Below, in pieces: positions 2,438 to 52,617 of a stretch of 64,000 bases of DNA. Each line of letters starts with the position of its first letter. Within the stretch, counting starts at the first letter, position 1. The position numbers and the translations under genes are program-made. Under the pieces are notes generated by a model, which made no database searches, had not been told where the DNA came from, and saw only the letters and a program-made list of their open reading frames with translations. Where the stretch lies: NCBI GenBank assembly GCA_963555755.3, contig OY820905.2, positions 1,088,001 to 1,152,000 of the forward strand, given 5' to 3'. The stretch is from Nitrospirales bacterium. Its GTDB lineage: Bacteria; Nitrospirota; Nitrospiria; Nitrospirales; UBA8639.

Positions 2438-2639
2438 TTACAATTCGGAAAAAGAGCCAGCCCTAATAAGAAAAGGGGAAACCATCACAACCATCAAAAA
2501 TTCTTGTGAACTATCTTACTGAACTCAGAGGAAAATTGAGATACACTGGACTGTAACGACCTAATGAAATTTGTCACAATGTGTACCAGGCAGGGACACA
2601 GACAAGATTCAAAACCATGAATCGCCGAATGGGTTAAAG

Positions 2640-3740
2640 ATGTTGTATCCTCACCCGCTAAAAACATCCTTCGGGGCAATTGCGCTCGTCCTTTTCCTCT
2701 GCTCGGAGAGCCTCATCAGCATAGCATGGGGTCAAGAAATCTTCACACCCCGACGACCCATTGCTTCATTGGTCAAAGCCCACACGATTTATCTTCAGAC
2801 CGAAGTTGTCAAAGGAGGGATTCAGATTGACCCTCAACCGGTTACCGATGTGATCACGCAACGATTCCAGAAAGTGGGCTATACGATCGTGACCAACTTC
2901 AACTCCCCGCATGACGTGACCGTATCTTTTCAATGTGAGGAACCTATACGCATCCAACCACCAACCAATTCCACAGAGAAATACGCTCTCCAAATCTCAG
3001 GTCCCCCCTGCCTCTTTCACTATGCCGTCCAGGAAAAACCTGTAGACTGGCAACGTATTGATATCATTATCTATAACGAAGGAGTCCAAGCAGCCGAATC
3101 CCTCAATCGCATGACCACCGGCTTCCCATCCATGGCCCACGCAGCTCCACTCTCCAGCCAGTATCTTGAAGTGTTGGATTTTCCAACCCTTTTGTCCGCT
3201 GAATGGGGACAAGTGCCACGCCTCGTGGTTTTATTAGAAAACTCCCAGACATCACTTCAAAGACGGAAAAAAATCATTGCACTTCTCGGGGAGATTCAGG
3301 CCGAACAGGCCCTCCCTTGCTTGTTGGATTTACTCAGCAACTCGACCCTTCAAATTGATGCGGCTTGGGCATTGGGGAACTTTGGGGCTCAGGCTCAGGA
3401 ACCGCTCATCACACTCCTTCAAACCCACCCCGATGAAAAAATGCAAGCCGCAGCTGCACAAAGTTTGGGACGTATTGGCGCTGCCACCGGAGACACGAGT
3501 CTGACTCCTCTGTACATAGAACTCTTGAAAAAGCCAGGCCTGGACATTCAAGTAAAAACAGAGATCGTCTGGGCCATCGGCAAATCCCCAGACTTCCGAG
3601 CGCACGCGGCACTTGAAGCACTGGAAAGCCAAATCTGGCAAATTCGATCAAATGAGCCGGAATTGCAGAAACTACGGGAGGCTGTGGATTGGAGTATTCG
3701 AGAAGTGCGACAGGGAGGACATACGGGAGCGTACTATTAA
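2640..3740 (+). CDS. exported HEAT-repeat protein (paralog of 60918 and 62168)
   Basis: signal-peptide-like N-terminus; shared F.CEE, GP.CLF.Y and DFP....EWG motifs; HEAT-like AAWALG / AAAQSLG / IVWAIG repeats. Confidence 0.8.
   Translation: MLYPHPLKTSFGAIALVLFLCSESLISIAWGQEIFTPRRPIASLVKAHTIYLQTEVVKGGIQIDPQPVTDVITQRFQKVGYTIVTNFNSPHDVTVSFQCEEPIRIQPPTNSTEKYALQISGPPCLFHYAVQEKPVDWQRIDIIIYNEGVQAAESLNRMTTGFPSMAHAAPLSSQYLEVLDFPTLLSAEWGQVPRLVVLLENSQTSLQRRKKIIALLGEIQAEQALPCLLDLLSNSTLQIDAAWALGNFGAQAQEPLITLLQTHPDEKMQAAAAQSLGRIGAATGDTSLTPLYIELLKKPGLDIQVKTEIVWAIGKSPDFRAHAALEALESQIWQIRSNEPELQKLREAVDWSIREVRQGGHTGAYY
3642..3706 (+). repeat. 65-bp perfect direct repeat, copy 1 (att-like, inside HEAT gene 3' end)
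   Basis: ATTCGATCAAATGAGCCGG...ATTCGAGAAGT identical to 17828-17892. Confidence 0.95.
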
Positions 3741-3759
3741 CTTACCTATCTCTCCTCAC

Positions 3760-4206: not shown

Positions 4207-4370
4207 CCTAGAAACGGCAGTTGGGCGCAAAAAAGCCGTGTAAGCTATTGGTGTGCATGGTGAAATAAAAAAAGTCGTAGTCACCTTCGTGGTGATGAGA
4301 CATTTTTTTATTTTGCCAGGTGCGCCAATAATCTTACACGTCTTTTTTGCGCCCAACTGCTGTTTCTAGG
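4207..4370. mobile_element. MITE family A (CCTAGAAAC(A/G)GCAGTTGG TIR), chimeric copy
   Basis: TIRs present; both subterminal regions are of the same type; flanks do not match. Confidence 0.85.
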
Positions 4371-4372
4371 TT

Positions 4373-5188
4373 CAACTGGTGTGAGGAGCATGCGGTGACG
4401 TTTGCGATTGGGGGCGTGCAGGATACAGCCGTGCAGGCCGCCATTGCGGCGAGCCCTGACACTCAGGGGCAACCCTATCGGGATGGGCACCTCGCTGAAA
4501 CCGTGCATGGTATGGCCAAGACCACGCACGCCTTTCGGCTCATCGTGCTGCGCCGACCCGTGCAACAGGATCTGTTTGCCCCCGAGGCCCCCAGCCTGCG
4601 CTACACGCTGATTGCGACGAACCGAGACGGAACCCTCGAGGAGATTGTGCGGTGGTACACCCAGCGGGGCGAGACCAGCGAGAATCGCATCAACGAACTG
4701 AAGATTGGCTTTGGCAGGGAACGACTGCCGTGTGGGCCCTTTGCGGCCCATGCCGTCTTCTTTCGCATTGGCGTGTTAGCCTACAACCTGTTTGTGGTGG
4801 TCAAGTTGTTGGCGGTGCCCCATGCCTGGAGCCGGTGCCCAGTGCGTACGGGGCGGTGGCGGCTCTATCAGGTGGCGGGCAAAGTGCGCCGGCATGCCGG
4901 CGCAGTCATTCGCAAAGTGCCGCATTGGTTATGGGGCTTGTGTGAAGAGATTCGCACGCGCTGTGCGGAAGCCGCCCAGGCATAAGCCGGGGCAGGAAGC
5001 AGACGCGAGAGGCAGTATGAAAGGAGCAGTGTGCCCAGAAGGAGCCGGTTGAACCCATTGCGGCAAGGAACCCCTTGGATGCGGCCTCGGATCCAGCAAG
5101 AACATTGCTCATGCGACTTCTCTAGTGGATAACAAAGGTGGTTTCCGCCACAGAAGTCTTGTTAACAAAATCCATCGCGGATTTTGGG
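4373..5188 (+). pseudogene. IS1380-family transposase 3' remnant with right end
   Basis: YTQRGETSENRINELKIGFG..LPCG.F.A.A.FF.IGVLAYNL motif; 5' part missing; ends in GCGGATTTTGGG. Confidence 0.75.
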
Positions 5189-5415
5189 TATCGCGTTCCT
5201 CTCGCTCTCCGGCCTCAGTTTTGGTACTCTCACTCATCGTGGCGTCTCTCCTTTGTGGTTGAAGGTGGATGTTGGCGAACAACCATTTCAACCCGAGACG
5301 CCGCGTTTTTTCAATCCACCTCAGACACGACTTTCAAGTATCGCTCCGCATGGCGACCATGGCGGAGGTGTCCAATGTCGTATTCATTTGCCATAACAAA
5401 AGAAAGGAATCACGC

Positions 5416-6669
5416 ATGACCACGACCATGACAAGGTTACCGATCTCTCCTTCGAACGATGTGTGGAAACGATACACGATCCTCATCGTAGATGATGAGT
5501 CCTTCGTCCTGGATGAGCTTTATAGGGTCTTGACACACGAAGGTTTTTCCGTCGCCAAAGCAAGAAGTGGTGAGGAGGGCTTACAGCTCTTGAGCGAGGT
5601 GTCGCCTCAGTTGGTCATTGCGGATCAAAAAATGCCTGCCGGCATGAGTGGGACAGAGTTTTTGGCACAGGTCAAAGCCCGCCACCCTGATATGATGACA
5701 ATGATTCTCTCGGCCTATTCTGAGCCGGACTATCTCCTGGATGCCGTGAATGAAGCGGGTGTCTATCAGTATGTCTTGAAACCCTGGGATGAAACGGATC
5801 TTGTCGCTCGTGTCTCCCAGGCCCTGCAGTTTTCTCATGCGCAAGTGGAGCGCCGCCGTTTAGCTGAGGCCAATGCACGATTGCTGAAAAATATGACGCA
5901 GCGGGAATATTTCTCTCTGATGGGAGAATTCAGCGCGGCCATGTATGACCGGTTCTTTCCTGTGCTCGAAGCCAGCCTGCACGCGGAAAGGCATAAACTC
6001 AACCAGTTTACCAAGCGTTCATTCCTGTCCGCCAGTGAGGAAGGCTTTTCCCATTTGGGCATCGTGATCAGTCGGTTTGGTCAGGTGGGCAACATGTATC
6101 AGCAGCCCTCTCACTTCCGACGACTTCCCATAGAGCCGCTGGTTCACGGTTGTGTGAAGGAGGCCCAAGATGCCGTGAAACCATTAGGCCTCTCTGTTGA
6201 GTGGAAGGAGGACTATGCCCCCAATCTCCCTCATTTACTCATTCAGCCGACCGTCTTGTCGTACGCAATCAAAGCTCTCCTTGAAAATGCAGTGATTTTT
6301 AATGTGAGGAAGACGATTGATTCTCCTCGGCTTGTGTCGGTCACCGTGTCTTTCATGGCTGAGCCCGAGCCCCTCGTGCGTATTCAGGTGCAGGACAACG
6401 GGCCAGGGGTGGATCCTTTTGAACAGGACAAAATCTTTTTTCCCCTCTATTCCACGTGTCTTCCGAAAACAGCTCCCAGGATACAGCCCTATTCGCTGAG
6501 TGAATACAATTTGGGGATCTACCACCATATGGGCTTAGGGCTCTTCATTGCACGATGGGGCCTGATCCAACACCATGGCAACGTGGAATTGACCAGCTCC
6601 AGTGAATCGGGATCGGTTTTCCAGGCGGAAATTCCGATCGACCCGTCTGATCTGGCCGTCAAAATGTAG
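5416..6669 (+). CDS. REC + degenerate DHp + HATPase hybrid histidine-kinase-like protein lacking the H-box His
   Basis: ILIVDDE..ADQKMP..YVLKPW receiver; N/G1/F/G2 boxes (LLENAV, DNGPGV, IFFPLYST, GLGL); H-box position reads MGEFSAAMYDRFFP; AAAGGA RBS before ATG 5416. Confidence 0.85.
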   Translation: MTTTMTRLPISPSNDVWKRYTILIVDDESFVLDELYRVLTHEGFSVAKARSGEEGLQLLSEVSPQLVIADQKMPAGMSGTEFLAQVKARHPDMMTMILSAYSEPDYLLDAVNEAGVYQYVLKPWDETDLVARVSQALQFSHAQVERRRLAEANARLLKNMTQREYFSLMGEFSAAMYDRFFPVLEASLHAERHKLNQFTKRSFLSASEEGFSHLGIVISRFGQVGNMYQQPSHFRRLPIEPLVHGCVKEAQDAVKPLGLSVEWKEDYAPNLPHLLIQPTVLSYAIKALLENAVIFNVRKTIDSPRLVSVTVSFMAEPEPLVRIQVQDNGPGVDPFEQDKIFFPLYSTCLPKTAPRIQPYSLSEYNLGIYHHMGLGLFIARWGLIQHHGNVELTSSSESGSVFQAEIPIDPSDLAVKM

Positions 6670-6972: not shown

Positions 6973-7725
6973 CTATAGCAAGGGGATAAATTTTTCTAAG
7001 GCGATTCTCAGCTTCTCAAGCTTTAATGGTTTCGTGATGAGATCATTCATGCCCGCTTGCAAACAGGTTCCTCGTTCATCTTCCGCAATACTAGCGGTTA
7101 AGGCGATAATGGGAATTTTCCCGGCGCCGGCTTCCATCTGTCGAATAATTGATGCCGCTTGATAACCATCGAGTTCCGGCAGACGGCAATCCATGAAAAT
7201 GAGGTCATAGGACGTCGCTTGCCATCGATCGATGGCCGCTTGCCCATTGTCCGCAATATCCACGTGGCAGCCTAATAGTTCCAGCATGTCCACGGCCACT
7301 TGTTGATGGATCCGCTCGTTCTCAGCAAGGAGCACGCGAATCATCCGGTCTGGTTGCTGTGGTTGATGAAGGTTGGGCCAACCCTCCTTTGAAAGGGAGG
7401 GCGTCGGCTTTTTGAGGGCGACAGACTGTGAGTGATCCGTCAGTTGTGCTAAAAAGGTATTGATAATCGCCTGCATCTTATCGAGGTATTCCTCCATCAT
7501 GTTGGGCATTTCAGTGAACAGCTGTTGGGCGCGCGGTGGGATCTCTTGTACGGCATGGCCTTGTTTTATAGCCTGTTGATAACCTTCCAGTACCATGGGT
7601 AAATACTGCTTGAGGTTCCTCGCGCAGATGTTCATATAGAGTAAGGGAGAACAGATATCATGCACGAAGGTCGCCCGTATTTCCTTAATGGTTTTGTCGG
7701 ACATCTTGTCTTCCATCGCATCCAT
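6973..7725 (-). CDS. HisKA/DHp-like + receiver domain protein without ATPase domain
   Basis: ATFVHDICSPLLYM H-box; C-terminal VLLAENE..LIFMDCRLPELDG..IIALTA..ITKP receiver. Confidence 0.82.
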   Translation of the reverse strand: MDAMEDKMSDKTIKEIRATFVHDICSPLLYMNICARNLKQYLPMVLEGYQQAIKQGHAVQEIPPRAQQLFTEMPNMMEEYLDKMQAIINTFLAQLTDHSQSVALKKPTPSLSKEGWPNLHQPQQPDRMIRVLLAENERIHQQVAVDMLELLGCHVDIADNGQAAIDRWQATSYDLIFMDCRLPELDGYQAASIIRQMEAGAGKIPIIALTASIAEDERGTCLQAGMNDLITKPLKLEKLRIALEKFIPLL

Positions 7726-8997: not shown

Positions 8998-11900
8998 ATG
9001 AGTCACTATCACTTAGGCATTAATCTTAGCCATGATCGCGCCGCAGCGTTAGTATCCGAGGGAAAATTTTTGACAGCGATTCAGCAAGAACGGCTGGATC
9101 GTCACAAGTACAGCCTCGGGCTTCTCCAACAATCGGTCGATGATCCCAAGGCCGTTCAACTCCCGATGGAAGCGATCCTCTACTGCCTTGAACATCACAA
9201 CCTTGACCTAGCCGACGTGGACACCATTACCGCCAACATGCCGGGAATCGATTGGAGCTCTCATATCTTAAAAAGGTGTTTACCTCAAAAGGTTGCGCAT
9301 AAGATTCGATCGATTCCCAGCCACCATCTCGCACATGCCTATAGCGCCTATTGGCCTTCCGGATTTGATGAGGCTGTGATCGTCGTCGTCGATGGCAGCG
9401 GCTCGACCCATGCACACAACACGGAATCCTATTCATTGTATGAAGGGCGAAACGAGAAGATCATCCCATTGCATACGGAATATGTCCCTGCTCATCTGGC
9501 GGAACTCTCCACTCTGGGATTTTTGTATGAATATGTCACGCGCAAGGCAGGCTTTGTGACGAAGACGGGATCCAAGCTCGCCATTCCCGAAGCGGGAAAA
9601 TTAATGGGGTTAGCCCCCTATGGGAAACACCAATCACACTGGCAGGGCTGGATACATACTAAACCTAGAAACAGCAGTTGGATCACAAAAGTCCGCGCAA
9701 GTTCTTGACGCACCTGGCAAAATAAAAAAATGTCTCATCACCACCGAGGTGACCTCGACTTTTTTTATTTCACCATGTACGCCAATACCTTACACGTCTT
9801 TTTTGCGCCCAACTGCCGTTTCTAGGCTAAAGCCAACAGTTATAGCCTGGCCATTTCCGCCTATGACATTTTTCTGGAAATCGCCGCCCTCGAAAAACGC
9901 TATGACACTCAGGAGGGCAAGGCGTATCTTCGACCCTATCTTGTGGATCTTGCCTTTAAGGTACAGAAAGAATTGGAGGAGGCCCTCTTCCATATTGTTG
10001 GTCTGGCGGTCAGACAGACAGGCATTCGTAAGGTATGCCTGGCGGGCGGTGTGGCCTTGAACTCCGTGGCTAATTATAAGCTGCTGACACAATTGGGGTT
10101 GGAAGATATATTTATCTTCCCCGCAGCTGGGGACTCAGGGATAGCCGCCGGATGTGCATTGTGGGCCTATGCCACGGAAGGACAGGGCACACAACGACAC
10201 CCATTCAAAACCGCAAACCTCGGGCGTCCGTACTCATCCGACGAAATACGACAGGCGTTGGAAAAATTTTCACATGGCCTCGACATTCACGAATGTACCT
10301 CGGCACAAATCATCGAACACTCCGCACGAGCGATGGCGAAAGGACATATCATCGCCAGATTTGCGGGAGGTTCCGAATACGGACCGCGGGCGTTAGGGTA
10401 TCGCTCAATCCTGGCGGATCCGCATTTTTCCAAAATGAAAGATATTATCAATGCCCGGGTAAAATTCCGCGAAGCCTTCCGTCCGTTCGCCCCTGTCGTA
10501 CCCGAAGAAAAGGTAGGCGATATCTTCGAGCACACCCACCCGTCACCCTTTATGTTACTGATCTCACCAATCAAACCGGAATATCAGGCACACATCCCTG
10601 GCGTATCGCACCATGATGGCACGGGACGCTTACAGACCACGACCCGTGAGACACACCCCTTTCTCTATCAGCTCTGTTGGGCCATCACGACCATCCGGGG
10701 AGGGCTACCCGTTTTGCTGAATACGAGTTTTAACATGGCCGGCCAACCGATTGTTGAAACACCCGAAGAAGCCATTGAAATGTTTTTACAGACGGATATC
10801 GATTACCTCTGTTTGGAAAACTTGTGGATCACCAAACGTGACTGCCCGGTCAAGGCCTATGAAGATCATCTGGCAACCGTCAAAAAGAATCCTCATCCTC
10901 AAGGACTCGCGCCCGAACAACCGCCGGTGACGGACCTCATGAAAAAACTCGATCGCGCGTTGTTTTTTGGAGACATGGATTAATGCCCGTGGTCCTTGGA
11001 AGAGGTAACCGCACTTTCTTCACAAGGCGGTAAATACAAGGAGACCACCCGATTATTTCCGGAGAATCCATTCCACCGTCCCTTTAGTACCCATCTGTCT
11101 TCAGGTGTTGTCTTACTATTGGATCCCATGAATCAGTCTCATTTAATTGACCTGAGTTACAAAAAGAAACCAGCCAGGTATTCCTTTAGGCAAGTGCGAT
11201 TGCTGATGGCCTTGCTGGGCAATTCTTCTGATTGCCTGGACGCATTACGGATTGAAGCACAATACAGCACATCGGAATGGGAAAAAGAAATCCATTGGGG
11301 AACACAACAACTCCAGGCGTACGATTTGCCGACGATACCTTGTAAGCCGATTCCCCCGGATGATGCTCTTTCGGCACATAACACTCACACCCTGGCCCCC
11401 TTTGAAAACGAGGAATACTCTTTACGACACATCCTGCGACAGATTCGCGATGTGCTCCTGCGCAGCGAGTATACGGAAATCCATATTTGCACACTCCTTG
11501 GTCTCGATGCCCTCCAACAAATTGACCCCACCCATTTACACTATTACAATCGTTTTGTCCTGCCTGATACCGATCTCGCAGACTTGATTCGTGTTTTCTT
11601 GTTGCGTGTTGCCCTGCCTCGTCCAAAGCTGGAGACCCTGTTCGGCCAAGCCTGTTTCCAAACCCTCAGGCATCTTGGGGTACTCATCCCACGCGGGGAA
11701 GCCTTCGCGTCCCGTATCGATCTCTATGACGTGGATGGGTTTTTTATCGGGACGGATCACCGATATATGCTCCTGGATGAAGATCGAATCGCCGAAGATC
11801 CCGTCATGTATGTCGGGTTGGATAGCCTAGGCTTAGTGAATACGGCCCCACGTGATCCAGCCAATCACCTGTTGGATTTATGCACGGGATCCGGAGTACA

Positions 11901-12983
11901 AGCGATCGTCGCTAGTCGGTATGCCAAAGAGGTCATAGGTGTGGACGTCAACCCGAGAGCGATACGCTTTTCAAGATTTAATGCCCAATTAAACGGCATT
12001 GAGAATGTCACATTTCTGAAAGGCAATCTCTATGATGCCGTACATGGCAGGTCTTTCGATGGTATTTTAGCCAATCCTCCCTTTGTTCCTAGTCCTGTTT
12101 ATGATTTGGGATTTAGAGACGGCGGTCGGCAGGGAGAGGAAATTCTTGCCCAAATCATTTCGAATGCCTCACAACACTTACGTCCTCTTGGAAAATTACA
12201 TATTGTTTCCGATTTGGTGGATCTGAATAACTATGAGTCGAAATTGAGTCACTGGTGGAAGGGTGGTCCGGCACAAACACTGATTCTTCATACGGCGGAT
12301 CGGAACGAGGTATTGTTTTCCGTCCCGCACAGTCACGCGCCGTTTGGTCAAGACTTCAAGAGTTACAATCAAGAAATAGAACGCTGGATAAACAACTTTC
12401 GACGAGCGAGACTCACTGCCGTGAATTTCGGATATATCCTCATCCACCGCCTTCTCGACACCACAGCAGGGAGTTATAAGACCCGCGTGATAAGCAGTCC
12501 TCTGAAACCGATTCACGAGCAAGTGAAACAATACTTTGAGCAGCAAGCCTTATTACGTCGTCCCGATTGTAGTCAACTCTTTCTGAGTCTGAACCAGCAA
12601 ATGGTTTTTTGCACAAAATTCCAATACGGAATCACCTGTCACCAGGTCGAATTGTGTGCCCCGGATAATCCCTATTTTACAACGTATGTGTTAACGGACT
12701 CCTTACTTGAGTTGGTCAAAGAGATTGCACGTCATCAGCCTCGGCTTGGCCTTTTCCTGGCCGGCGATCACTGTGAATGTATCCTCGATCTCATCAATAA
12801 GGGTATTCTGTTGCTTGGACCTAGGCCCCACCCCCACATGATCCAGGAGGACTGGAACGGTCATGGCCAACATTCCCTGACCGCATGGGCCCCTCGGGGG
12901 ACCATATGCCTTCCATGCAGTCTATTCAAGAGTTAGCCTCCAAAACGACTCCTACTTGCTTATCCTCCTATCTCAAAGTATAA
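8998..12983 (+). pseudogene. NodU/CmcH/TobZ-type carbamoyltransferase fused to a class I SAM (NPPF) methyltransferase; broken by a MITE, an in-frame TAA (10981) and a possible 3' frameshift
   Basis: ORFs 8998, 9943 and 10996 share one frame; HHLAHAYSA, EAGKLMGLAPYG, LAGGVALN, EYGPRALG.RSIL, REAFRPFAP, LNTSFN; then LDLCTGSG and ILANPPFVP. Confidence 0.85.
9664..9826. mobile_element. MITE family A (163 bp) inserted in the carbamoyltransferase gene
   Basis: CCTAG...CTAGG ends, 5-bp TSD CTAAA (9659-9663, 9827-9831). Confidence 0.95.
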
Positions 12984-13018
12984 GGCGGGTGAATGGCGTG
13001 TAAACGGAGAAAATCGAC

Positions 13019-15229
13019 ATGGACCCTCAAAAAACCGCCCTGATACTCATCGGGTATCAAAATGAATATTTCTCGGCTGAGGGAGTCTTACGTGAGGCCA
13101 TTGAGGCTTCATCCCAGGCCACACAAATTTTGGCGAATACTTGTTATCTGGTGGACGAACTCAGGGACACTCCCGTCTTGCTCATTACCACCCCGATCGT
13201 GTTTGCCCCTGACTACCGGGAATTGGTTGATCCCATCGGAATTTTAAAATCCATCAAAGAGGCGGGCGCCTTTCAAGCCGGCACCATTGGTGCAGAGACC
13301 ATCCCGGAATTGAAAGCCTACGGGGAACGAATTGTGGAAATTTCTGGCAAGTTCGGGCTGAACGCATTTTCTAATACAAACCTTGCGTCCCTACTCCGGG
13401 CCCACGATATCACGGAAGTGGTGATTGCGGGGGTCGTCACCTCCATTTGTGTCGACTCAACGGCACGTTCTGCCGTCGAACTGGGTTTCAAAACCACCAT
13501 CCTCTCGGATTGCACCTCGGGTCGCAGTGTGTATGAACAAGATTTTTTCTGTGAGAATATATTTCCTCTTTATGCCAACGTGGTGGATCATAAGGCCTTA
13601 TTACACACGCTGAGCTTTTCCAGAACGAACTCTTCTCACCTCCCAAGCCGAGGGGACATTCAAGCCCAAATCAGTCACCGCCTGTTTGAAGAATTGGCGG
13701 CAACCGAACAACGGTATCGAACTTTGGTGGAAATACGAAACGTCGTTTTTAAATACGATCAACATGGCTGTTTGACCTTCGTCAATCCCGCTTGGGAGGA
13801 TTTGCTGGGGTACCCGATAGAGGATACGCTCGGCCGTCCTCTCACCGATTTTTTATGCGAAGAAGATCGGGAAAAGGGGCTGGCCCTCGTGACCATAGGT
13901 CCTCAAACACCAAAAAGTCGATCTGATAAGCTACGCTTTTGTCATAGTCGGGGTCATGCCCGCTGGTTTGATGTCTCTCTCAGCTTGAGTGATGATGGGG
14001 AAGGCGTTGGGTTACTTTACGATATTACCGAGCAACAGGCGGAAGAAGAACAATTACAGCATACCCTTCGCAGGACCAAGGCCATTGCCAAATCCACGTC
14101 TGATTTTCTCTCGACCATGAGTCACGAGATCCGAACCCCGATGAATGGGGTCCTCGGCATGACGGAGTTGTTATTAACCACCGAGCTTAATGAAAAACAA
14201 AAACAATATGTCGAGGCCATCAGTGTCAGCGGTGAATTTCTCCTCGCACTCCTGGACGATATTCTAGACCTCTCCAAACTGGAATCGGGCAAAATGTCCC
14301 TGAAGCGTCAACCGCTGAACATTCCTCATATGATGAAATCGTTGTACGAACTCTTCCTTCCTGAAACCACCGCGAAAGGACTTCGTCTAGACTTTGTGAT
14401 CAAGGATGATGTCCCTGTCGAGATACAGGGCGATATCACAAGACTTCGGCAAATCTTGATCAATCTGATCGGGAATGCGGTAAAATTTACCGATCGTGGG
14501 GAGGTTGAGATTTCCATCCACAAGACATCCCAAGCCATGCAAACGTTGACCTTACTTTTTTCCGTGAAAGACACGGGCATCGGGATCTCTCCAGAAAAGC
14601 AATTCACCTTATTCGAAGCGTTCACCCAAGTCGTTCCATCCACGGCACGGGAATACGGTGGAACAGGCTTGGGATTGAACATTTGTTCCAAGCTCGTCAC
14701 TCTCATGAATGGGAGGATATGGGTCGAGAGTCAGGCCGGCCAAGGAACCACGGTCTCCTTTACCATCAAGACCAAGGCACTTACTGAGAAGTCATCGGAT
14801 AAGATGGGTCAAGAGACATCCCCGCGTCTTGATCCACAGCTTGCGACACATTTTCCCGCGCGCATCCTCGTGGCGGAAGATGACCCTATTAATCAGCAGG
14901 TTATCATTGACATGCTGGCTGCAATGGGCTACCGGGCGGATATTGTCGAAACCGGCATCGACGTCGTGAAAAGATTGAACACTCACCAGTACGATGTCAT
15001 TTTCATGGATATCAAACTGCCGGAGATGGATGGGATCCAAACTACGCAACACATCTTTAAAATCATGCCGCCGGAAAGGCGTCCGTGGATTATTGCCCTC
15101 ACCGCCAATGTTCTTCAAGAAAATCGGGAACGATGCCTCGCGATCGGGATGTCCGACTTTATTACCAAACCCATTAACCCAAGGGCCTTACAATCCGCCT
15201 TAACCCGCCGGGGTACGCAAGTGACCTAG
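13019..15229 (+). CDS. hybrid sensor kinase: cysteine hydrolase (isochorismatase-like) domain - PAS - HisKA - HATPase - REC
   Basis: TALILIGYQNEYF..GK.GLNAF..AGVVTSICVDSTAR; PAS FVNPAWEDLLGY; MSHEIRTPMNG; NLIGNAVKFT, DTGIGI, GGTGLGL; VAEDD..MDIKLP..KP. Confidence 0.92.
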   Translation: MDPQKTALILIGYQNEYFSAEGVLREAIEASSQATQILANTCYLVDELRDTPVLLITTPIVFAPDYRELVDPIGILKSIKEAGAFQAGTIGAETIPELKAYGERIVEISGKFGLNAFSNTNLASLLRAHDITEVVIAGVVTSICVDSTARSAVELGFKTTILSDCTSGRSVYEQDFFCENIFPLYANVVDHKALLHTLSFSRTNSSHLPSRGDIQAQISHRLFEELAATEQRYRTLVEIRNVVFKYDQHGCLTFVNPAWEDLLGYPIEDTLGRPLTDFLCEEDREKGLALVTIGPQTPKSRSDKLRFCHSRGHARWFDVSLSLSDDGEGVGLLYDITEQQAEEEQLQHTLRRTKAIAKSTSDFLSTMSHEIRTPMNGVLGMTELLLTTELNEKQKQYVEAISVSGEFLLALLDDILDLSKLESGKMSLKRQPLNIPHMMKSLYELFLPETTAKGLRLDFVIKDDVPVEIQGDITRLRQILINLIGNAVKFTDRGEVEISIHKTSQAMQTLTLLFSVKDTGIGISPEKQFTLFEAFTQVVPSTAREYGGTGLGLNICSKLVTLMNGRIWVESQAGQGTTVSFTIKTKALTEKSSDKMGQETSPRLDPQLATHFPARILVAEDDPINQQVIIDMLAAMGYRADIVETGIDVVKRLNTHQYDVIFMDIKLPEMDGIQTTQHIFKIMPPERRPWIIALTANVLQENRERCLAIGMSDFITKPINPRALQSALTRRGTQVT

Positions 15230-15446
15230 GGATTGTCTTTTCTCTGTTAAGGTCAGGATTGGGGGGGATTTGGGGTCAATTACGGTGTTTTCTCTCAGAC
15301 ACTATTCTACACGAATCATCGGCTGTTTCCAGGGATTGTTCACCAGGCAGGCGGAGGATTCACCACCGCAAAATTGAGAAAACTCTCGTGCTCATAACAA
15401 TTTGAAGATCCAAACACCGGCTTCACTCGATCATTAAACCCAATTC

Positions 15447-15860
15447 TCATGCTTCGGGAAATGGTCCTGAGACAGCAGGAAGCTTTCGAATCTTGGTTAC
15501 ACAATCGGCATAGAGAAACACAACGCCACCAACTTTTAATACGCTCTTTTTAGGTATTTCCCGGACCACCGGGCCTAGGGCAATGTCCGTTCGGAAATTG
15601 ACTACAGCCTTACAGGCATTACGTCCTTCTTTGACAAACGAATATTCCGAATCCCTAATGAGTACCCCAGAGATACCTTCAACCTGTAATTTCCTAGGCC
15701 CCGGAACTACCTCCCAAATTTCATACCCAGGAATCTCCGACCGCACAAAAGCTCCTAGATATTCTCCCTGGCTGGAACTCTTTTCTTGGACAACCGACCC
15801 ACCTCCAGATGAAACCAAGCAATAACTAAAAATTAAGAGGCCTCCTAAAATTTTTCGCAT
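15447..15860 (-). CDS. hypothetical exported protein
   Basis: 137-aa ORF with signal-peptide-like N-terminus and AGAGGG RBS. Confidence 0.5.
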   Translation of the reverse strand: MRKILGGLLIFSYCLVSSGGGSVVQEKSSSQGEYLGAFVRSEIPGYEIWEVVPGPRKLQVEGISGVLIRDSEYSFVKEGRNACKAVVNFRTDIALGPVVREIPKKSVLKVGGVVFLYADCVTKIRKLPAVSGPFPEA

Positions 15861-17739: not shown

Positions 17740-17926
17740 AGAAAACAGAAATCATTTAGGCATTAGGAAAGAAACCAGACTTTCAATCACATCCGGTACT
17801 TGAGGGCTAGCAAGCGAGATCTGGCTCATTCGATCAAATGAGCCGGAATTGCAGAAACTACGGGAGGCTGTGGATTGGAGTATTCGAGAAGTTCGTCAGG
17901 GAGGGCATACTGGAGACTATTCCTAA
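17740..17926 (+). pseudogene. second copy of the HEAT gene 3' end (att-like remnant)
   Basis: KTEII*ALGKKPDF..(frameshift)..IWLIRSNEPELQKLREAVDWSIREVRQGGHTGDYS*; 17828-17892 identical to 3642-3706. Confidence 0.88.
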
Positions 17927-18283
17927 TGTACCCAGACCCCTCCCCAGCCCCTCCCCTTCGCACCATTCGAACATAATTTCTCACCATTTTTGACTAAACT
18001 GGAAAACCCCATTTCCTCGTTTTCTGGACATAATTCCTTGGCTTTGCAGAAACATGACTATCTTTTAAGAAACAATTATGGTACAAATAAGGATCTTTTG
18101 GCGCCGGGGGTCTGGCGGTTAAAAGGTTCGTGAATAAGACCCGTAACCGATGTTGTTTTGCCGAGGAGTTCATTCGGAAGTCAGCCCAGAGTCGCCTCAA
18201 GTTCGCGCCCTCGGACCCTACCTTCCAAACGTTCGATTTTCCCCAGTTCAAGACAATGTCATGATTTTCAAAGGAGGAACCAC

Positions 18284-26266: not shown

Positions 26267-27505
26267 TTAGGCACTTAAAGGCAAGGCTTCATAATTAGAT
26301 GCTAAGGGGTTCCGGACATAATTTTCGACAAAATTCTTCAGTGTGCCATTTCGATACAGTCTTGTGTTCGCAAATTTCGTATCGATCTTATGGAGCACCT
26401 TTACCTTGACGCCTGTTTTTTGGATGAACTCCTCCAAGGTCACACCCATAATATCCATATTGGATCCGCGACCAGATTGCATGACACTTTTGGGAATGTG
26501 GATGCGCTTTTCATTCGTCAAACATTTCCGAATATCATCAAAGGTCAGGAGAACCGTACAATCGGAATCACCACCGAGCATCGCATTGGGCACATGAAGA
26601 AACCGCGCTCGTTTCTTTCGATACATATTCAAGATCTTATACACACTTCCAGCCATCACGACCGTATCTTTTTTCTCTAATTCCAAGGCATCGAACGCAC
26701 TCATGATTCGCTTTCGATTAAGAAAGGCCGTCACATATCCTTCCGTGTGAATCGTGGTCAAGTTTGGGTATCCTGCATCATAAATTCGCTCAGCCTCAAT
26801 GGGAAGAAACTTCCGACCTTGCCGCATGAGGGTCGTCGTATCATCTTTGAGACCACGAACGGGGGTAAGGCAGCCCATCCACAACACACAGGTTTGATTG
26901 ATTTTCGCAATCGTTTCCGCATCCTTGGACATGGTGCCCTGATCAAATGAGTAAAAATTCGCCGATGACACCGCTGGCCCATCTACGACTTTCAGGAGAT
27001 GCTTCACGGATGGCGCATGCGGCATGAGTTTTTCACGGTACTTGCTAAGCGTAATGACCGACAACTCAAAGTTAATCCGTCCAGGATATTGAGCCACGAG
27101 TTGATGAATTTTGGGAACGTGGACAAACCCGACTGTAAAAAATTGAATGCTTTTATCGGTATATTTGAGAAAGTCCTCGACCCACTCCATACATTTGGGA
27201 TGGAGAAACAAATCCGTCCACTCCATATATTCATTGCCACCCAAGCACCAAAACTGCATGGGATCGGTTGGCTTTGCATTAATGTAGTTGAGGATGAACT
27301 CCCAATCGTCCTGCGTGGTTTTTGGTGGGTCTTGGGTTTCACGGTAGGAATGATCCAGCTCATAACAAAATTCGCATTCCACAGGACACTTCTTCCCCAA
27401 GCTCAGCGGGATTTTTCCCCCATCCATCTCACGCGTCAGGACTTCTCGATACCCTTTGCCTTGAAGAACAAGGGTTGGCTCTAAGACTGGAAGTTCACGC
27501 CCCAT
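26267..27505 (-). CDS. radical SAM protein with DUF512-like C-terminus
   Basis: CPVECEFC motif; C-terminal VPNAMLGG...VLLT..DI. Confidence 0.75.
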   Translation of the reverse strand: MGRELPVLEPTLVLQGKGYREVLTREMDGGKIPLSLGKKCPVECEFCYELDHSYRETQDPPKTTQDDWEFILNYINAKPTDPMQFWCLGGNEYMEWTDLFLHPKCMEWVEDFLKYTDKSIQFFTVGFVHVPKIHQLVAQYPGRINFELSVITLSKYREKLMPHAPSVKHLLKVVDGPAVSSANFYSFDQGTMSKDAETIAKINQTCVLWMGCLTPVRGLKDDTTTLMRQGRKFLPIEAERIYDAGYPNLTTIHTEGYVTAFLNRKRIMSAFDALELEKKDTVVMAGSVYKILNMYRKKRARFLHVPNAMLGGDSDCTVLLTFDDIRKCLTNEKRIHIPKSVMQSGRGSNMDIMGVTLEEFIQKTGVKVKVLHKIDTKFANTRLYRNGTLKNFVENYVRNPLASNYEALPLSA

Positions 27506-27741
27506 ATAACATTATTCCTACTTTAAAAAAACGCTTTGCTTTGTATAAGAAATTGTAACTATTCAGGTATTTAGGCTGAAGGCTATGACTCATAATGCAC
27601 GACGTTTTGTATGATCAGGCATGATTACCCCTAAAAGCCTTCAGTCTATCCACCCTGAGAAGTTTCAAGAATTTCCGCTCATTGACACAAAGAATACGGG
27701 TTTGCCAGACTAACGGTCAGTATCCTTTGAGAGTCCAATCC

Positions 27742-28041
27742 ATGAGTTCTACAGCCTCATCTCCTGAAAGTAAAAATCAGGATTCTTCAATTCAGGAATC
27801 CATAACCCAAGCCCTGACTTTATTTGACTTGACGCCACCCTTCTCTTCAACAACTCTCTACCAACGCTACCAAGACTTGCTGTTGACGTGGCACCCGCAT
27901 CGGTATGCCAACATGACCAACAACCCAACCAAGTACATGAAAATGTACAAAAAAGGTGAGGCCATGACCAAGGAAATACGGTCGGCCTATACTGCCTTGA
28001 AAGAATGGTTAGAAAGCCAAACCGCTCCTTCCCCAGATTAA
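27742..28041 (+). CDS. small J-domain-like protein (HPD replaced by HPH)
   Basis: AL.LF.L...L.QRY..L...WHPHRY...EI..AY..L. Confidence 0.7.
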   Translation: MSSTASSPESKNQDSSIQESITQALTLFDLTPPFSSTTLYQRYQDLLLTWHPHRYANMTNNPTKYMKMYKKGEAMTKEIRSAYTALKEWLESQTAPSPD

Positions 28042-28083
28042 CAACCCTACAGCGACACACTAGTTTACCAAAAGACAATATGG

Positions 28084-30051
28084 CTATTTGGACGCATGGC
28101 TGACCACCCGCGCCATCCCCGGCTCTCCGTCTTTTCCACCTTCAGGAGCAATTTTGGCGACAGGCCACGTGATCAAGCCAGCAACCGTGTCAGACTTGGC
28201 ATCGGCAGGCCTATGATGAGTGGCATAAATTTGTGGCAACCCGTTGGTGCCATACTTTGAAATGTATAGAAAGATCTGCTCTCGGGCATTGATACGCACA
28301 GCCCACGGTTCAAAATCATTCTGATAAAACTCTTCACACAATTGCATCGCATCCAAACAGGTGACGCCACCTGGTTCATTGAGCGTGTAATAATAATCAA
28401 GCGGCATATCGTATTCGTCCTGCTTATGAATCGTAATGCCGAACTTTTCGGGATTCCGAACCATCGGCGTATGACGATAGGCCACAAAGTAAAACAACTC
28501 GACGGAGTGGATGTTGGATTTATTGTTGAGTAAGAACTGTCGTGTGTCTTCCGCTTCTTCTCGTGTTTCTCCCGGGAATCCATAAAACGCCATCACATGA
28601 TTCCAGATCCCCACATTCGCCGCTTCTCTCAAATTATTTTCAATCACACTCTTCCGTGCATGTTTATCCATGAGTTCCAACACGCGTTCATTGGCCGATT
28701 CCATACCATAGTAAAGAGTCTTGCAGCCTGATTTTGCCGCTAACTTCCAAATTTCAGGATCTTGGAGAGTCTCCTCAAACCGAATGAGGGTGGTCCACTT
28801 GATGTCGACATTCTCATCAATCAACAATTGCGAAACTTTTTTAAAGAGGGCAGGGGGATAGGACTCATCGGCGAACAGGAAATGATCCGCATGATATTTT
28901 TCCTGTAACGCAGCAACTTCACGCACGACATCATGGGCTGGTTTGCCTCGATACTGATCAAAGTACCCTTGTCCATGATCGCAAAACGTACATTTCCCCC
29001 AATAGCATCCCCGGGTCGCAAGATAGGGAAGAATTCTCGTCGGGACGAAATAGGAATCGAGCGGGAACCCTTCAAAGTCCGGCAGAGGAAGGCTGGTGGT
29101 CTTTTCCGTATAAATTTCAGAGTTCGTCCGGACATGTCCCTGCTCGCGATACATCAAGTTGGGCACTGCGGCCCACTCACGGTCACCGGCCAAGGCTTCC
29201 AGCAGCCACAAAAGCGCATGCTCGCCTTCATACATAATGGCCGAGTCAAAAATTTCCGTAAAAAATGGCTCTTGCTTGGCAAGGTCTTCTTGCAATCGGG
29301 TAATCACATTTCCACCCACGGTAATATGAATGTCGGGGTAGGCTTCCTTGATCATTTTTCCAAAGGTAAATCCCGCGATGAGCTGCATTTGGGTGCCAAT
29401 AGAGATACCCACCACTTCCGGACGTTCTTTGGCCACTGAAGGCAACACCAACTGTTGACAGACATCGCGATACACATTCACTTGGGAATCATTGAGACAG
29501 GCATACACATCACTGGAAACACCCGGTCGATATCCTAAATTACTTTCCATGGGATAGTAGACAAGCGAGGCGGGAAAATAGGCAGCAGAGATGTACCGCA
29601 TTACGTCTCGAAAGACGTTCAACGCCCATTCAAGTTTGCTCGCGTCATAAAAATCTTCGCTTCGGTTGATGCGTTTCGCTTCATCCGCATTCTCAGCCAA
29701 TTCCATCACGTCAATCGACAAGGCTTCTTCCAGACATGCTTTTTGATCGATTTCCTTCTCCGTCAATCCACTGGTGGATTCTTTCGCCTTCAGTACCCGA
29801 AGTTGCTGAGCCATGCGAGCATTGACCCAAATCAAGAACATATCGCTGAAGAACAGTTCGTACATTTCGATATTGATGTCTCGCTGAATGACTTCATGGC
29901 CATTTTCACGAAGCACCGCCGTCAGGCTGGGAAGCGCGAGATAGGGAGCCGTCGGAACCCATTCCGGGGGGAAGAGCAGCATGGTCTTCACCTTCCGACC
30001 ACTCTTTGGCATCGAACTTGTTGTGTCAATCTGTATGATGGAAGAGGACAT
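28084..30051 (-). CDS. cobalamin-binding radical SAM protein
   Basis: FPPEW.PTAPYL.LP.L, TVGGN, YEGE, TRGCYWGKCTFC, G.ES...RVL..M.K, GFPGE. Confidence 0.92.
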   Translation of the reverse strand: MSSSIIQIDTTSSMPKSGRKVKTMLLFPPEWVPTAPYLALPSLTAVLRENGHEVIQRDINIEMYELFFSDMFLIWVNARMAQQLRVLKAKESTSGLTEKEIDQKACLEEALSIDVMELAENADEAKRINRSEDFYDASKLEWALNVFRDVMRYISAAYFPASLVYYPMESNLGYRPGVSSDVYACLNDSQVNVYRDVCQQLVLPSVAKERPEVVGISIGTQMQLIAGFTFGKMIKEAYPDIHITVGGNVITRLQEDLAKQEPFFTEIFDSAIMYEGEHALLWLLEALAGDREWAAVPNLMYREQGHVRTNSEIYTEKTTSLPLPDFEGFPLDSYFVPTRILPYLATRGCYWGKCTFCDHGQGYFDQYRGKPAHDVVREVAALQEKYHADHFLFADESYPPALFKKVSQLLIDENVDIKWTTLIRFEETLQDPEIWKLAAKSGCKTLYYGMESANERVLELMDKHARKSVIENNLREAANVGIWNHVMAFYGFPGETREEAEDTRQFLLNNKSNIHSVELFYFVAYRHTPMVRNPEKFGITIHKQDEYDMPLDYYYTLNEPGGVTCLDAMQLCEEFYQNDFEPWAVRINAREQIFLYISKYGTNGLPQIYATHHRPADAKSDTVAGLITWPVAKIAPEGGKDGEPGMARVVSHASK

Positions 30052-30056
30052 GGTTT

Positions 30057-31952
30057 TTATACTTTCGCCAATTCTTGGCCCTTTTCATCTGGGGTAATTC
30101 GAAATTGGAGGGCCGGAAGTTTGTTCGTGCTGAAATAGGCCACATATAAAAACACATATTCACGGATAAAAATCTTCAAGTCCCACCCGGCATAGTGATT
30201 TTGTTCAAATTCCTCGAACACACGTTCGGCATCTTCAATACTTAACCCATCTTTCACCGTAAAATAGTAATCCAGCGCCAGATCCCATTCAGGGTTGGCA
30301 TAGAACGTCACTCCCCATTTTTCAGCATTCTTCGCCACCGGGGTATGCTTGCTCAGGTCGAAAGTCCCAAATCCAATAGAATGGACATGCTCTTTATTGT
30401 CTTCCAAGAATTGCATGGAAAATTTGGCATCTTCGTACCGTTCCCCTGGAAACCCAAAGAATCCCATGACGTGATTCCACACACCATGTGTAGAAGACAA
30501 CTCCATGCTTCGTTGAATCACATCCGTCGTCGTCGCCTTATCCATTAATTTGAGCACTCGCTCGCTGCCTGATTCATATCCAAAATGGAGGAATTTGCAG
30601 CCTGAATCCTGAGCATCCTGCCACACTTCATCATCCAATAAACTCTCTTCGAACCGCATGTGCGTGGTCCAGGCAATGCCCATTTGTTCTTCTTTCAACG
30701 CGCGCGTGAGCTTGCGGAACAGGGCTGGGGGATAGGACTCATCCGTAAAGTGGAACATATAGGTCTGATATTTATCGCGGAGAAATCGTACTTCTTCGAT
30801 GACCTCCTGAATCTTCTTCGTCCGATACCCGGCTGTGTATCCTTCCCCATGATCACAAAACTCGCACCGTCCCCAATAGCATCCGCGCGTGGCAAGATAG
30901 GGAAGGATGGGTTCTGGCACGAAATATTTTTCGAGCGGCAACCCGTCAAAATCCGGTGGCGGCAAATCGGACATATTTTCAGAAGAGGTGACCGGAGACG
31001 TATGGAGGCCGGAATCATCACGCCACAGCAGATTGGGAATTTCATTAAAATCACGATCCGTTCCAACGGCTTCGATTAGCTGCAAGAAGGCGGTTTCGCC
31101 CTCATATACGACAGCGCTGTCAAAAAGTGCGAATAATTGAGGCGAATTGGGAAACACATCTCGCAACCGCGTGACGGTATTTCCGCCAATGGTTATATGG
31201 ATGTTCGGAAATTGCTCTTTTATCATGGCGCAAAATGTCATCGTGGAAAACAATTGCTGTCGTAACACGATAGAGATACCAATGATGTCTGGCTGTTCCT
31301 CAATGATGGCAGGTTTCAAAATATGTTCAAACACATCTCGATACACATTGACTTGGGCATCTTCCACAGCGGCAAGGACTTCCGAAGATATAAAAATTTT
31401 ATATGAAAGATCCGTCTCCATCGGCGGCATACAAATACGGGCAGGAGAATAGACAAGAGAAATTGTCGCGGTCACTTCGCGGAAAATATTGATGGCCCAC
31501 TCAAGTTTATCAACATCATAAAACTCTGGTGACCGAACGATCGCCTTGGCTTGCTCTGCCTTCTCGCTCAGCTCGGCAATGCTTGAACGTGTGCATTCGC
31601 ACAAGGCCATTTGCAATTCTGTTTCGGCATCAGTCAACCCACGGTCCCGGCCGATTCGTTTAAGCCGGTCGAGTTGTTGAGGAACACGCTTGAGCACGCG
31701 CTTTAAGAAATCAGCGCTAAAAAACCAATCGTACATTTCCAAATTGACGTCTTTTTGAACCACCTCGTGGCCAGCCCGTCGAAGAAAAGCTGTCAACGTC
31801 GGCAGACTGAGATAGGGTTCGGAAGGATACCAATCTGGAGGGAAGACCAGCATGACCTTTTTCTTGGGTCCGCTTTCCGCTTGAGATTCTTTTCGACGAA
31901 GCTGTAGGAGCTGCGGGCTCAGCAGTCCGCCTTTATCATAGTCAATTATCAT
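30057..31952 (-). CDS. cobalamin-binding radical SAM protein (paralog of 28084)
   Basis: FPPDW.PSEPYL.LP.L, TIGGN, YEGE, TRGCYWGRCEFC; ATG 31952 with AAAGGA RBS. Confidence 0.92.
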   Translation of the reverse strand: MIIDYDKGGLLSPQLLQLRRKESQAESGPKKKVMLVFPPDWYPSEPYLSLPTLTAFLRRAGHEVVQKDVNLEMYDWFFSADFLKRVLKRVPQQLDRLKRIGRDRGLTDAETELQMALCECTRSSIAELSEKAEQAKAIVRSPEFYDVDKLEWAINIFREVTATISLVYSPARICMPPMETDLSYKIFISSEVLAAVEDAQVNVYRDVFEHILKPAIIEEQPDIIGISIVLRQQLFSTMTFCAMIKEQFPNIHITIGGNTVTRLRDVFPNSPQLFALFDSAVVYEGETAFLQLIEAVGTDRDFNEIPNLLWRDDSGLHTSPVTSSENMSDLPPPDFDGLPLEKYFVPEPILPYLATRGCYWGRCEFCDHGEGYTAGYRTKKIQEVIEEVRFLRDKYQTYMFHFTDESYPPALFRKLTRALKEEQMGIAWTTHMRFEESLLDDEVWQDAQDSGCKFLHFGYESGSERVLKLMDKATTTDVIQRSMELSSTHGVWNHVMGFFGFPGERYEDAKFSMQFLEDNKEHVHSIGFGTFDLSKHTPVAKNAEKWGVTFYANPEWDLALDYYFTVKDGLSIEDAERVFEEFEQNHYAGWDLKIFIREYVFLYVAYFSTNKLPALQFRITPDEKGQELAKV

Positions 31953-32041
31953 GTTAATCCTTTGCAAAAATGTTTCACGGAAAGGAGGCAAAGCCCTTCC
32001 ATTGGCAATTTTCCAAACACCTTTGAAAAATCAAAAGATTA

Positions 32042-51678: not shown

Positions 51679-52617
51679 TTAGTGATGAAGCTGCAAATGC
51701 CCCCGGCGATTCAACTGATAGCATTGGTCATTATTGCCAAAACAAAATGGGCGTTCTTTGCCGTAGGAAATCACTTGAATCTTGTGATTCTCAACACCTA
51801 GGTCTACGAGGTAGGCTCGCACGGCTCCGGCTCGCTTCTTCCCAAGGACGAGATTGTAATCCCGGCTTCCTCGTTGGTCACAATGGCCCTCTACGGTTAT
51901 GCCGCGACTTTGGTTTTGATCCAACCATTCTGCGTCGTGGGCCAAGGCTTGCCTTCCATTTTGCGAAATTCGCCAGCTATTGAATTCAAAAAACACATCT
52001 TGCAATTCCACTTGCACCCGTGAAAATTGACCACTCTGAGCCCCCCGGTCCATCCCACGAGAAGCAAACGGTTGGGCTTCGGCAATATTGTCATAGTCCT
52101 CTTGAATAAATTCTTCCGCCATAAAGCCACCTTGACCATTGCGATACCCCTGGCCTGATGCCCAGTTGCCTCCATTCCCACCACCATATTCTTGAAGACC
52201 GGCAAGGGGACCGGAATTGGCCCAGGACTCCGAATTGTTTTGATTGTCCCCGAAGTAGGTAAGCCCACTTTGTGCCGAATTTTGTGTGCCGTACTCCCCT
52301 GCTTGTGCAGTGGCTTCACCTTGCTGAGACCAACCAGGTTGCCCTGTGCCTCGCCAAGATCCAAATGGATGGTCTGCACCGCCTTGGTTGTCTGCACCGC
52401 CTTGGTTGTCTGCACCGCCTTGGTTATCTGCACCGCCTTGGTTGTCTGCACCGCCTTGGTTATCTGCACCGCCTTGGTTGTCCGCGTATTGGGCACCCTG
52501 TTCAAATGTCTCTGAATCAGCTGTGACTCGAACCGATTTTTGGCTACAACCTTGCCCGATCAGCAAGGCCAGTGCAGCAAGACCAACAATTTTCAAAATT
52601 TCTCGACCCGTTGCCAT
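51679..52617 (-). CDS. Pal/OmpA-family peptidoglycan-associated lipoprotein with long low-complexity linker
   Basis: lipobox GQGC; DVFF.F, VEGHCDQRGS..YN..LG..RA, SYGKERP, NRR; AGGAGG RBS. Confidence 0.9.
   Translation of the reverse strand: MATGREILKIVGLAALALLIGQGCSQKSVRVTADSETFEQGAQYADNQGGADNQGGADNQGGADNQGGADNQGGADNQGGADHPFGSWRGTGQPGWSQQGEATAQAGEYGTQNSAQSGLTYFGDNQNNSESWANSGPLAGLQEYGGGNGGNWASGQGYRNGQGGFMAEEFIQEDYDNIAEAQPFASRGMDRGAQSGQFSRVQVELQDVFFEFNSWRISQNGRQALAHDAEWLDQNQSRGITVEGHCDQRGSRDYNLVLGKKRAGAVRAYLVDLGVENHKIQVISYGKERPFCFGNNDQCYQLNRRGHLQLHH
52372..52479 (-). repeat. 18-bp tandem repeat x6 encoding ADNQGG
   Basis: (G/A)TCTGCACCGCCTTGGTT units on the + strand, no spacers. Confidence 0.95.

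Follow-up and report, generated by a model that had tools for sequence, protein, structure and literature searches.

A 64,000-nucleotide (nt) stretch of the genome of a Nitrospirales bacterium (assembly GCA_963555755.3, contig OY820905.2, positions 1,088,001 to 1,152,000; G000:C1:1088001-1152000 in our numbering, hereafter the window) carries a module whose parts are known folds and whose combination is, apparently, an undescribed system shared across phyla. The module consists of a gene that joins a carbamoyltransferase to a methyltransferase (hereafter the fusion), a sensor of the cysteine-hydrolase fold in which the catalytic Asp has been replaced by Gly, and a signalling protein that begins with a conserved helix and is a hybrid kinase in the window. 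In this strain the fusion gene is broken three times and the kinase gene is intact; such a pseudogene is ordinary in itself, and it matters as a pointer to the wider module. We tentatively favour a reading, quite possible and short of probable, in which the fusion makes an N-methylcarbamoyl product, the Asp-less hydrolase domain binds or traps this product, and the helix relays the event to the kinase, so that the present strain would be a listener. No description of the module was found in the open-access literature, judged by titles and the starts of abstracts (subscription journals and supplements lay outside this search), in agreement with a preliminary description of the window in which the genes were not recognized as a described system.

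The fusion gene spans 8998-12983 on the forward strand, where three pieces in one frame (8998-9708, 9943-10983 and 10996-12936) correspond to Carbam_trans_N, Carbam_trans_C and an NPPF-motif methyltransferase of class I. The preliminary description had repaired these pieces into a single carbamoyltransferase-methyltransferase protein, which is upheld both by the shared frame and by the homologous loci, as all domains lie in one open reading frame (ORF) in 68 of 80; contig ends truncate most of the other loci, and the gene is split in three. Here and below, locus counts refer to the best 80 of 242 confirmed genome matches to the fusion, and homologue counts cover the 120 listed from a protein search that returned 271 fusion clusters. 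The possibility of two genuine separate genes was rejected on the basis of the same 68 single-ORF homologues. The combination of a broken candidate synthase with an intact putative sensor was likewise borne out, and a third break, a late frameshift, which had been missed, is added here. The features of the fusion pseudogene and the kinase are as follows.

8998..9663, forward strand: first piece of the fusion pseudogene, the N-terminal part of the Kae1-like carbamoyltransferase domain, with the metal ligands His109, His113 and Asp132
9664..9826: first break, a 163-base-pair (bp) non-coding mobile element with terminal inverted repeats and a target duplication at 9659-9663 and 9827-9831
9832..10980, forward strand: second piece, the rest of the carbamoyltransferase (Kae1-like and YrdC-like parts)
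10981..10983, forward strand: second break, a premature TAA in a column that 105 of 120 homologues fill with G, N or D
10984..12822, forward strand: third piece, with a linker domain, a GenN/AerE-like N-methyltransferase and a C-terminal domain
12825..12923, forward strand: third break, a frameshift in a variable linker, located to this interval with the exact base not fixed
12924..12983, forward strand: conserved C-terminal tail with the invariant Cys codon at 12957-12959, out of frame here
13019..13630, forward strand: input domain of the cysteine-hydrolase fold, in which Gly12 replaces the catalytic Asp and Lys111 and Cys144 are kept
13655..13714, forward strand: conserved helix (kinase residues 213-232, with Gln217, Arg221, Leu222 and Glu224), predicted to be the likely docking site for the sensor domain
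13715..15229, forward strand: PAS, HisKA, HATPase and receiver domains of the hybrid kinase

At the first break, the element and its 5-bp target duplication together add 168 nt, which stay in frame and carry stops. The 163-bp element gives 100 alignments of at least 150 nt in the host genome; similar sequences are also present in the congeners G002 and G006, and a remnant of an IS1380-type transposase (window 4347-4985) begins inside one copy. The frame of the tail ends at the TAA at 12981-12983, 35 bp upstream of the kinase ATG. Contigs of the sequencing runs X1 and X2, which come from two studies, one possibly the source of the window itself, match 9799-15600 without differences and run into the element; the breaks are therefore real in the strain, and assembly error was rejected as their cause. 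The RNA run X9 yielded low-depth contigs over the greater part of the kinase and a single piece within the pseudogene, which were not used, because contigs cannot give an expression level. Further split or truncated fusions were found in L012, L038, L087, L202 and L203, three of them beside a sensor gene, which points to repeated decay of the fusion.

All 120 homologues, 1159-1326 residues long and 45-53% identical to the methyltransferase half in the window, have both enzyme domains. PF02543 and PF16861 score above cut-off in the window fusion, which thus has the Kae1-like and YrdC-like domains that define a class III carbamoyltransferase, and the four metal ligands (two His and two Asp, as in GdmN) are kept in 119-120 of the 120 homologues and in the pieces in the window. 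The same two domains and the same ligands are described for TobZ, GdmN and NodU (PDB 3ven, 7vyj; PMC9633730). In contrast to these enzymes, the present family adds a methyltransferase half of 680 residues, has no biosynthetic cluster around it and lies far below the NodU equivalog cut-off (NF041651, 132.9 versus 1000 bits for the intact protein of L042). The PrmC/HemK cut-offs were not reached either (TIGR03534, 67.8 versus 199 bits; TIGR00536, 62.4 versus 115.5 bits).

The methyltransferase half was modelled from the Anabaena protein (predicted template-modelling score 0.90), and the model matched GenN (Z 27.9) and AerE (Z 26.0) far better than other methyltransferases (Z at most 16), in fold searches that barely probed the extra domains flanking the methyltransferase core. 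The root-mean-square deviation is 3.1 A over 343 residues for AerE (PDB 7rc2; PMC9060474) and over 296 residues for GenN (PDB 5tyq); unlike these enzymes, to which it is about 20% identical, the fusion has additional N- and C-terminal domains and no proteusin precursor or epimerase among its recurring neighbours. According to PMC9060474, five active-site residues of AerE were mutated and four were needed for activity. Tyr137, Asp141, Asn231, Phe234 and Val235 of AerE align exactly with the methyltransferase half, and 120 of 120 homologues have them without exception; no such match of the AerE residues is seen in the alignment to GenN. Because these five residues align exactly and are invariant, the methyl acceptor is likely an amide-type nitrogen, either a carbamoyl NH2 or the side chain of Asn or Gln. 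The N-methylation proposed in the preliminary description is retained as a prediction, with the likely acceptor shifted from a sarcosine-like amine to an amide or carbamoyl nitrogen. Carbamoylation and N-methylation also occur in one pathway in the rhizobial NodS/NodU system, whose product, the Nod factor, is a signal. A further pathway with both steps contains the carbamoyl N-methyltransferase Asc-Orf2 (PDB 9l4q, so named in its title), which our model matched only at the general methyltransferase level (Z 13.5). Asc-Orf2 and NodS/NodU differ from the fusion in being separate enzymes that act on large scaffolds. The available text of PMC12790363 added nothing on carbamate methylation.

The C-terminal tail is closed by a T-x-P-x-C motif in all 120 homologues, with the Cys 5-8 residues from the end in 116. 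In both structural models, the larger of which begins after residue 58, the tail packs in its first part (predicted local distance difference test 79-83) and its last ten residues, including the Cys, do not (46-47), so that the tail is apparently flexible. In the HypF/HypE system (PMC9633730, PMC12130793), of related carbamoyltransferase chemistry, the carbamoyl group is passed to a conserved cysteine at the C-terminus; by comparison, the cysteine of the fusion lies on the same chain as the enzyme and is a putative carbamoylation site. Around the fusion, no biosynthetic, transport, tailoring, precursor or protease gene recurs across clades (80 loci, with a scan of 93 of the 100 genes immediately beside it), in keeping with a one-gene synthase working on common co-substrates. 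No proteusin precursor or epimerase was found among the neighbour families recurring in at least 3 of the 80 loci, where ORFs under 70 residues were not called. Split borosins, according to 10.1101/2021.12.24.474128, often neighbour GGDEF genes, and the borosin domain named there, of the TP_methylase family, is absent from the Pfam matches of the methyltransferase half. A viral collection gave no relative, no plasmid record covered 80% of a fusion, the ESM Atlas gave no usable match, and a single-sequence pattern scan of genome contigs found nothing.

The kinase gene (13019-15229, forward strand) is unbroken and encodes 736 residues with isochorismatase, PAS, HisKA, HATPase and receiver domains. 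It has no membrane-like stretch (highest 19-residue hydropathy 1.55), and domain calls and hydropathy agree with the earlier view of an intact, cytoplasmic-looking hybrid kinase on the strand of the fusion with a cysteine-hydrolase input. The input domain scores 123.8 bits against PF00857 (cut-off 27) and remains below all NCBIfam cut-offs; its nearest solved relative is a Streptomyces protein (PDB 3kl2, E value 2e-35). It shares the Isochorismatase fold of Pfam and the Lys and Cys of the catalytic triad with BiuH, RutB, N-carbamoylsarcosine amidase and PDB 3kl2. It differs from these cysteine hydrolases in that the Asp has become Gly (Glu in 3kl2) and in being paired with a signalling protein rather than a catabolic pathway. 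The preliminary description had linked the domain to N-carbamoylsarcosine amidase; this identity was rejected, as the Asp-Lys-Cys triad typical of catalytic cysteine amidohydrolases is incomplete and the match is weak (E value 1e-4). In BiuH, the Asp is reported to be irreplaceable, and mutation of the Lys left a thiocarbamate trapped on the Cys (PMC5806882).

Gly occupies the Asp position in all aligned sensors of fusion loci, with Lys111 and Cys144 kept. As one earlier scan pattern favoured Gly, this was checked by a profile search of 1.84 billion representatives, in which Gly was found in 44 of the 45 domains that scored at least 190 bits and covered the position; the Cys was also gone in 6 of 46, and below 150 bits the Glu and Asp types prevail. 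In metagenome sensor loci, the Lys is kept in 79 of 80 and the Cys in 80 of 80. The sensor forms a distinct Gly-type subfamily of cysteine hydrolases, an apparently unnamed family of predicted pseudo-enzymes. The proteins P0122, P0123, P0136, P0158 and P0134 carry at least two tandem hydrolase domains and no kinase, P0134 with a TIR_2 domain as well.

The arrangement in the window, with sensor and kinase in one protein, is the rarer one: the sensor domain is fused to a kinase in 2 of the 32 fusion loci that hold it and is a separate gene in the other 30, so that the proposed two-gene system has to be replaced by a unit of three parts. In all these 32 loci a helix of about 20 residues begins the gene directly downstream of the sensor, as it does in 14 of 17 unlinked loci, in 13 of 13 further Nostocaceae and in 59 of the 61 metagenome loci with at least 500 bp downstream (the other 19 of the 80 had too little sequence for a count). 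The domains after the helix vary and include PAS-kinases, hybrid kinases, kinases without PAS and PAS-GGDEF-EAL proteins (32 of 47 nearby signalling ORFs scanned), and one protein fuses the sensor domain to GGDEF-EAL. A membrane-like stretch was found in 0 of 31 partner proteins. The helix Gln is present in 99% of 90 partners; the covariation between sensor and helix in 90 paired rows, equivalent to about 52 effective sequences, reached 0.23 against a mean shuffled maximum of 0.22, no signal over the shuffled pairs and too weak to weigh for either side. The simplest reading of the helix that begins the partner proteins is that the sensor would dock on it as a subunit.

The linkage between fusion and sensor that the preliminary description had predicted was found in 32 of 80 fusion loci, in which homologues of the first 204 kinase residues (50-60% identical) occur in Cyanobacteriota, Pseudomonadota, Thermodesulfobacteriota, Bacteroidota and Myxococcota, with the sensor upstream of, downstream of or divergent from the fusion. 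For the 48 fusion loci without an adjoining sensor, 47 genomes were searched (L050 shares its genome with L029) and 17 hold the sensor elsewhere, so that it is present in 49 of 79 fusion genomes overall. As a background, the sensor was found in 1 of 300 genomes of the cyanobacterial phylum, where it adjoins a fusion, and either gene in 0 of 300 other genomes of the class of Desulfogranum (centre genome excluded). Among 251 genomes of the Nostocaceae, the family of Nostoc sp. NIES-4103, 18 have both genes (17 adjoining, with one of these fusions truncated), 12 the sensor alone, 220 neither, and one a fusion alone, whose copy has an internal stop; 18 of the 19 fusion-bearing genomes thus hold the sensor. 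A Fisher value for these counts overstates the association, as kin are non-independent. In a fast tree, nine of the 12 proteins from sensor-only genomes group as a single clade inside the fusion-associated sensors; the sensor-only proteins keep all 57 columns conserved in fusion-adjoining sensors, and the 8-14 kb around the 12 loci contained no relic of a fusion. Sensor-only and broken-fusion genomes, which the idea of a listener state requires, therefore exist. Across 27 linked pairs, fusion similarity and sensor similarity are correlated (rho 0.87), a value confounded by kinship.

In sensor-less genomes, the fusion adjoins other kinases in 10 loci of three lineages: six loci of one clade have a gene of the metallo-beta-lactamase fold in between, three loci of another clade have an upstream hybrid kinase, and one has a PAS-kinase. 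In one Synechococcales clade (L025:8915-9745, L027, L032, L037, L048 and L051), the place of the sensor pair directly after the fusion is taken by a metallo-beta-lactamase-fold gene and another hybrid kinase, and a metallo-beta-lactamase-fold gene also follows the fusion in L066 (Bacillota). In a Leptolyngbya-like clade (L022, L047, L065 and L070), the fusion has a divergent sensor-kinase pair on one side and, on the other, a row of genes for response regulators and probable chemotaxis proteins, which is possibly the output of the module.

Stand-alone sensors with cognate kinases are known from H-NOX/HnoK and NosP/NahK, and synthase/receptor pairs accompanied by receptor-only solos from LuxI/LuxR. 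The present module can be likened to both: as in H-NOX and NosP systems, a small cytoplasmic sensor gene lies directly upstream of, or fused to, a kinase or an enzyme of cyclic diguanylate (c-di-GMP) turnover, and as with LuxI/LuxR, there is genomic linkage and receptor-only genomes outnumber synthase-only ones. The folds and ligands are unrelated to those systems, and any quorum-type role, with a diffusible product and a density-dependent response, is hypothetical.

In the mechanism that we favour, the TobZ-like half would form carbamoyl-AMP from carbamoyl phosphate and ATP, and the carbamoyl group would pass to an acceptor, possibly first to the cysteine of the enzyme's own flexible tail, as HypF does to HypE. 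The methyltransferase would then methylate the carbamoyl nitrogen, and the product would fill the sensor pocket, where Cys144 could retain it for want of the Asp that turnover requires. The docked helix would pass the change on to the kinase or, in other genomes, to a GGDEF-EAL output. In the present strain, the product would no longer be made and a response to it would still be expected. A bolder version, which we consider doubtful, is a covalent relay, in which the fusion would load the carbamoyl group onto its own swinging C-terminal cysteine and N-methylate it there before the N-methylcarbamoyl group moves to Cys144 of the sensor; a long-lived enzyme intermediate would then turn on kinases and c-di-GMP enzymes in five phyla or more, and some strains, this one among them, would be listeners only.

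Several observations weigh against this mechanism. The predicted linkage is one-sided: seen from the sensor, a fusion is present in only 10 of 80 metagenome loci, or in 2 of the 15 with wide flanks (five long contigs were covered only in part), and the sensor may thus read something else. Of the 79 fusion genomes, 30 gave no sensor match, although many genomes are incomplete, and whole clades lack the sensor (marine Planctomycetota/Verrucomicrobiota, Bdellovibrionota and Bacillota). In none of the 30 sensor-less fusion loci is the tail missing, so that it is no docking piece specific to the sensor. Protein amides are the substrates of AerE and PrmC, and the helix has a near-invariant Gln, which would suit protein modification too. 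No recurring exporter and no membrane segment points to an extracellular signal. In addition, related genomes are non-independent samples for the linkage counts.

The nearest competitor, unlikely in our judgement, makes the fusion a writer on the sensor-kinase complex, which would methylate the helix Gln or carbamoylate Cys144 and thereby tune a sensor with some other real input, an adaptation logic that resembles CheR. The nearest active site, that of AerE, belongs to a peptide amide N-methyltransferase, the helix Gln is highly conserved, and the sensor occurs without the fusion in 12 of the 30 sensor-bearing Nostocaceae genomes, where no intact fusion occurs without the sensor; however, the 30 fusion genomes without a sensor match keep the same active sites and tail, and the helix was found with a profile that favours Gln. 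It is rather unlikely that the two are simply a regulator beside its target, the sensor reading an unrelated cytoplasmic cue (e.g., a thiol-reactive or carbamoylating metabolite) and the kinase controlling expression of a fusion whose product is used otherwise. The one-sided linkage would be explained, as would the frequent position of sensor-kinase pairs within ordinary two-component clusters and the 10 sensor-less loci with other kinases; less readily accommodated are the carbamoyl/amide chemistry common to fusion and sensor, an adjacency that outlasts several rearrangements and inter-phylum transfers, and the correlated, if kinship-confounded, similarity of the 27 pairs.

The tail, invariant and apparently flexible, has many hydroxyl and thiol residues and would also suit a self-modifying peptide precursor, in which the fusion would carbamoylate and methylate Thr, Ser or Cys of its own tail, to be cut off as a signal in the manner of borosins or crocagin. 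Peptide cores are usually variable, whereas this tail does not vary and its invariant end has no Asn or Gln; moreover, no protease or exporter recurs, and spending one 140-kDa protein per signal molecule would be costly, so that we consider this improbable. Crocagin is nevertheless described, in PMC10070186, as a ribosomal peptide with a carbamoyl and an N-methyl group. Least probable, and very much so, is an active hydrolase that destroys or converts the fusion product by substrate-assisted catalysis with PAS as the true sensor, for although the Lys and Cys are almost always kept, a metallo-beta-lactamase-fold gene fills the same slot in one six-locus clade and the cysteine hydrolase HqiA shows that the fold can degrade quorum signals, HqiA retains the Asp-Lys-Cys triad (PMC5430456), some partners have no PAS (L071, P0141 and P0168) and several sensor-family members have lost the Cys as well.

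The module genes of the window sit in a host genome of 4.6 Mb (99% complete) on an insertion of about 14 kb bounded by 126-nt direct repeats, with the following further features.

3621..3746: left-hand direct repeat, which lies in the 3' end of a HEAT-repeat gene (repeat family D17, 126 nt, 87% alike)
5269..6669, forward strand: signalling protein with receiver and HATPase domains on the same insertion, with only generic domain-level matches in fusion loci
6973..7725, reverse strand: response regulator divergent from the fusion, a candidate output of the kinase
17807..17932: right-hand direct repeat (repeat family D17)

The site is empty in the congeners G006 and G002, and the other two of the four congeners examined showed the right flank only; together with the repeats, this substantiates the island proposed earlier. 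A compositional island signal was rejected, as the guanine-plus-cytosine content of the insertion equals that of the genome (50.9%). The sensor was not found in 60 relatives of the host, and the methyltransferase half gave weak domain matches and no full-length match in 40 host-relative genomes. In one of the 80 loci, L058, the gene immediately preceding the fusion matches the response regulator at 6973..7725 over its full length (30%).

Elsewhere in the window, three related HEAT-repeat genes lie at 2571-3740, 60858-62018 and 62141-63280, the insertion being in the 3' end of the first. On the reverse strand, 26267-31991 holds two adjoining radical SAM genes of the B12-binding kind, then a gene for a 412-residue protein that matches no Pfam family, and a PhzF-like gene, possibly a small biosynthetic cluster. 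Three near-identical elements (485-2232, 32390-34137 and 34304-36051) carry a DruA-like domain and a DDE_Tnp_1 transposase over two ORFs, and arrays of 18-bp tandem repeats lie at 52355-52498, 54919-55211 and 56544-56800, one inside an OmpA-family gene and two flanking a Mutator-family transposase.

Taken as a family, these genes present a cytoplasmic sensor whose portable helix is attached to kinases and GGDEF-EAL proteins alike, and which is tied to a one-gene candidate synthase with a specific, testable chemistry. Intact three-gene versions are available in the cultured Anabaena sp. CCY 9613, Nostoc sp. NIES-4103, Fischerella muscicola PCC 7414 and Desulfogranum mediterraneum DSM 13871. A product that passes from cell to cell, if this is the case, would represent a new class of bacterial signal, notably in filamentous cyanobacteria.

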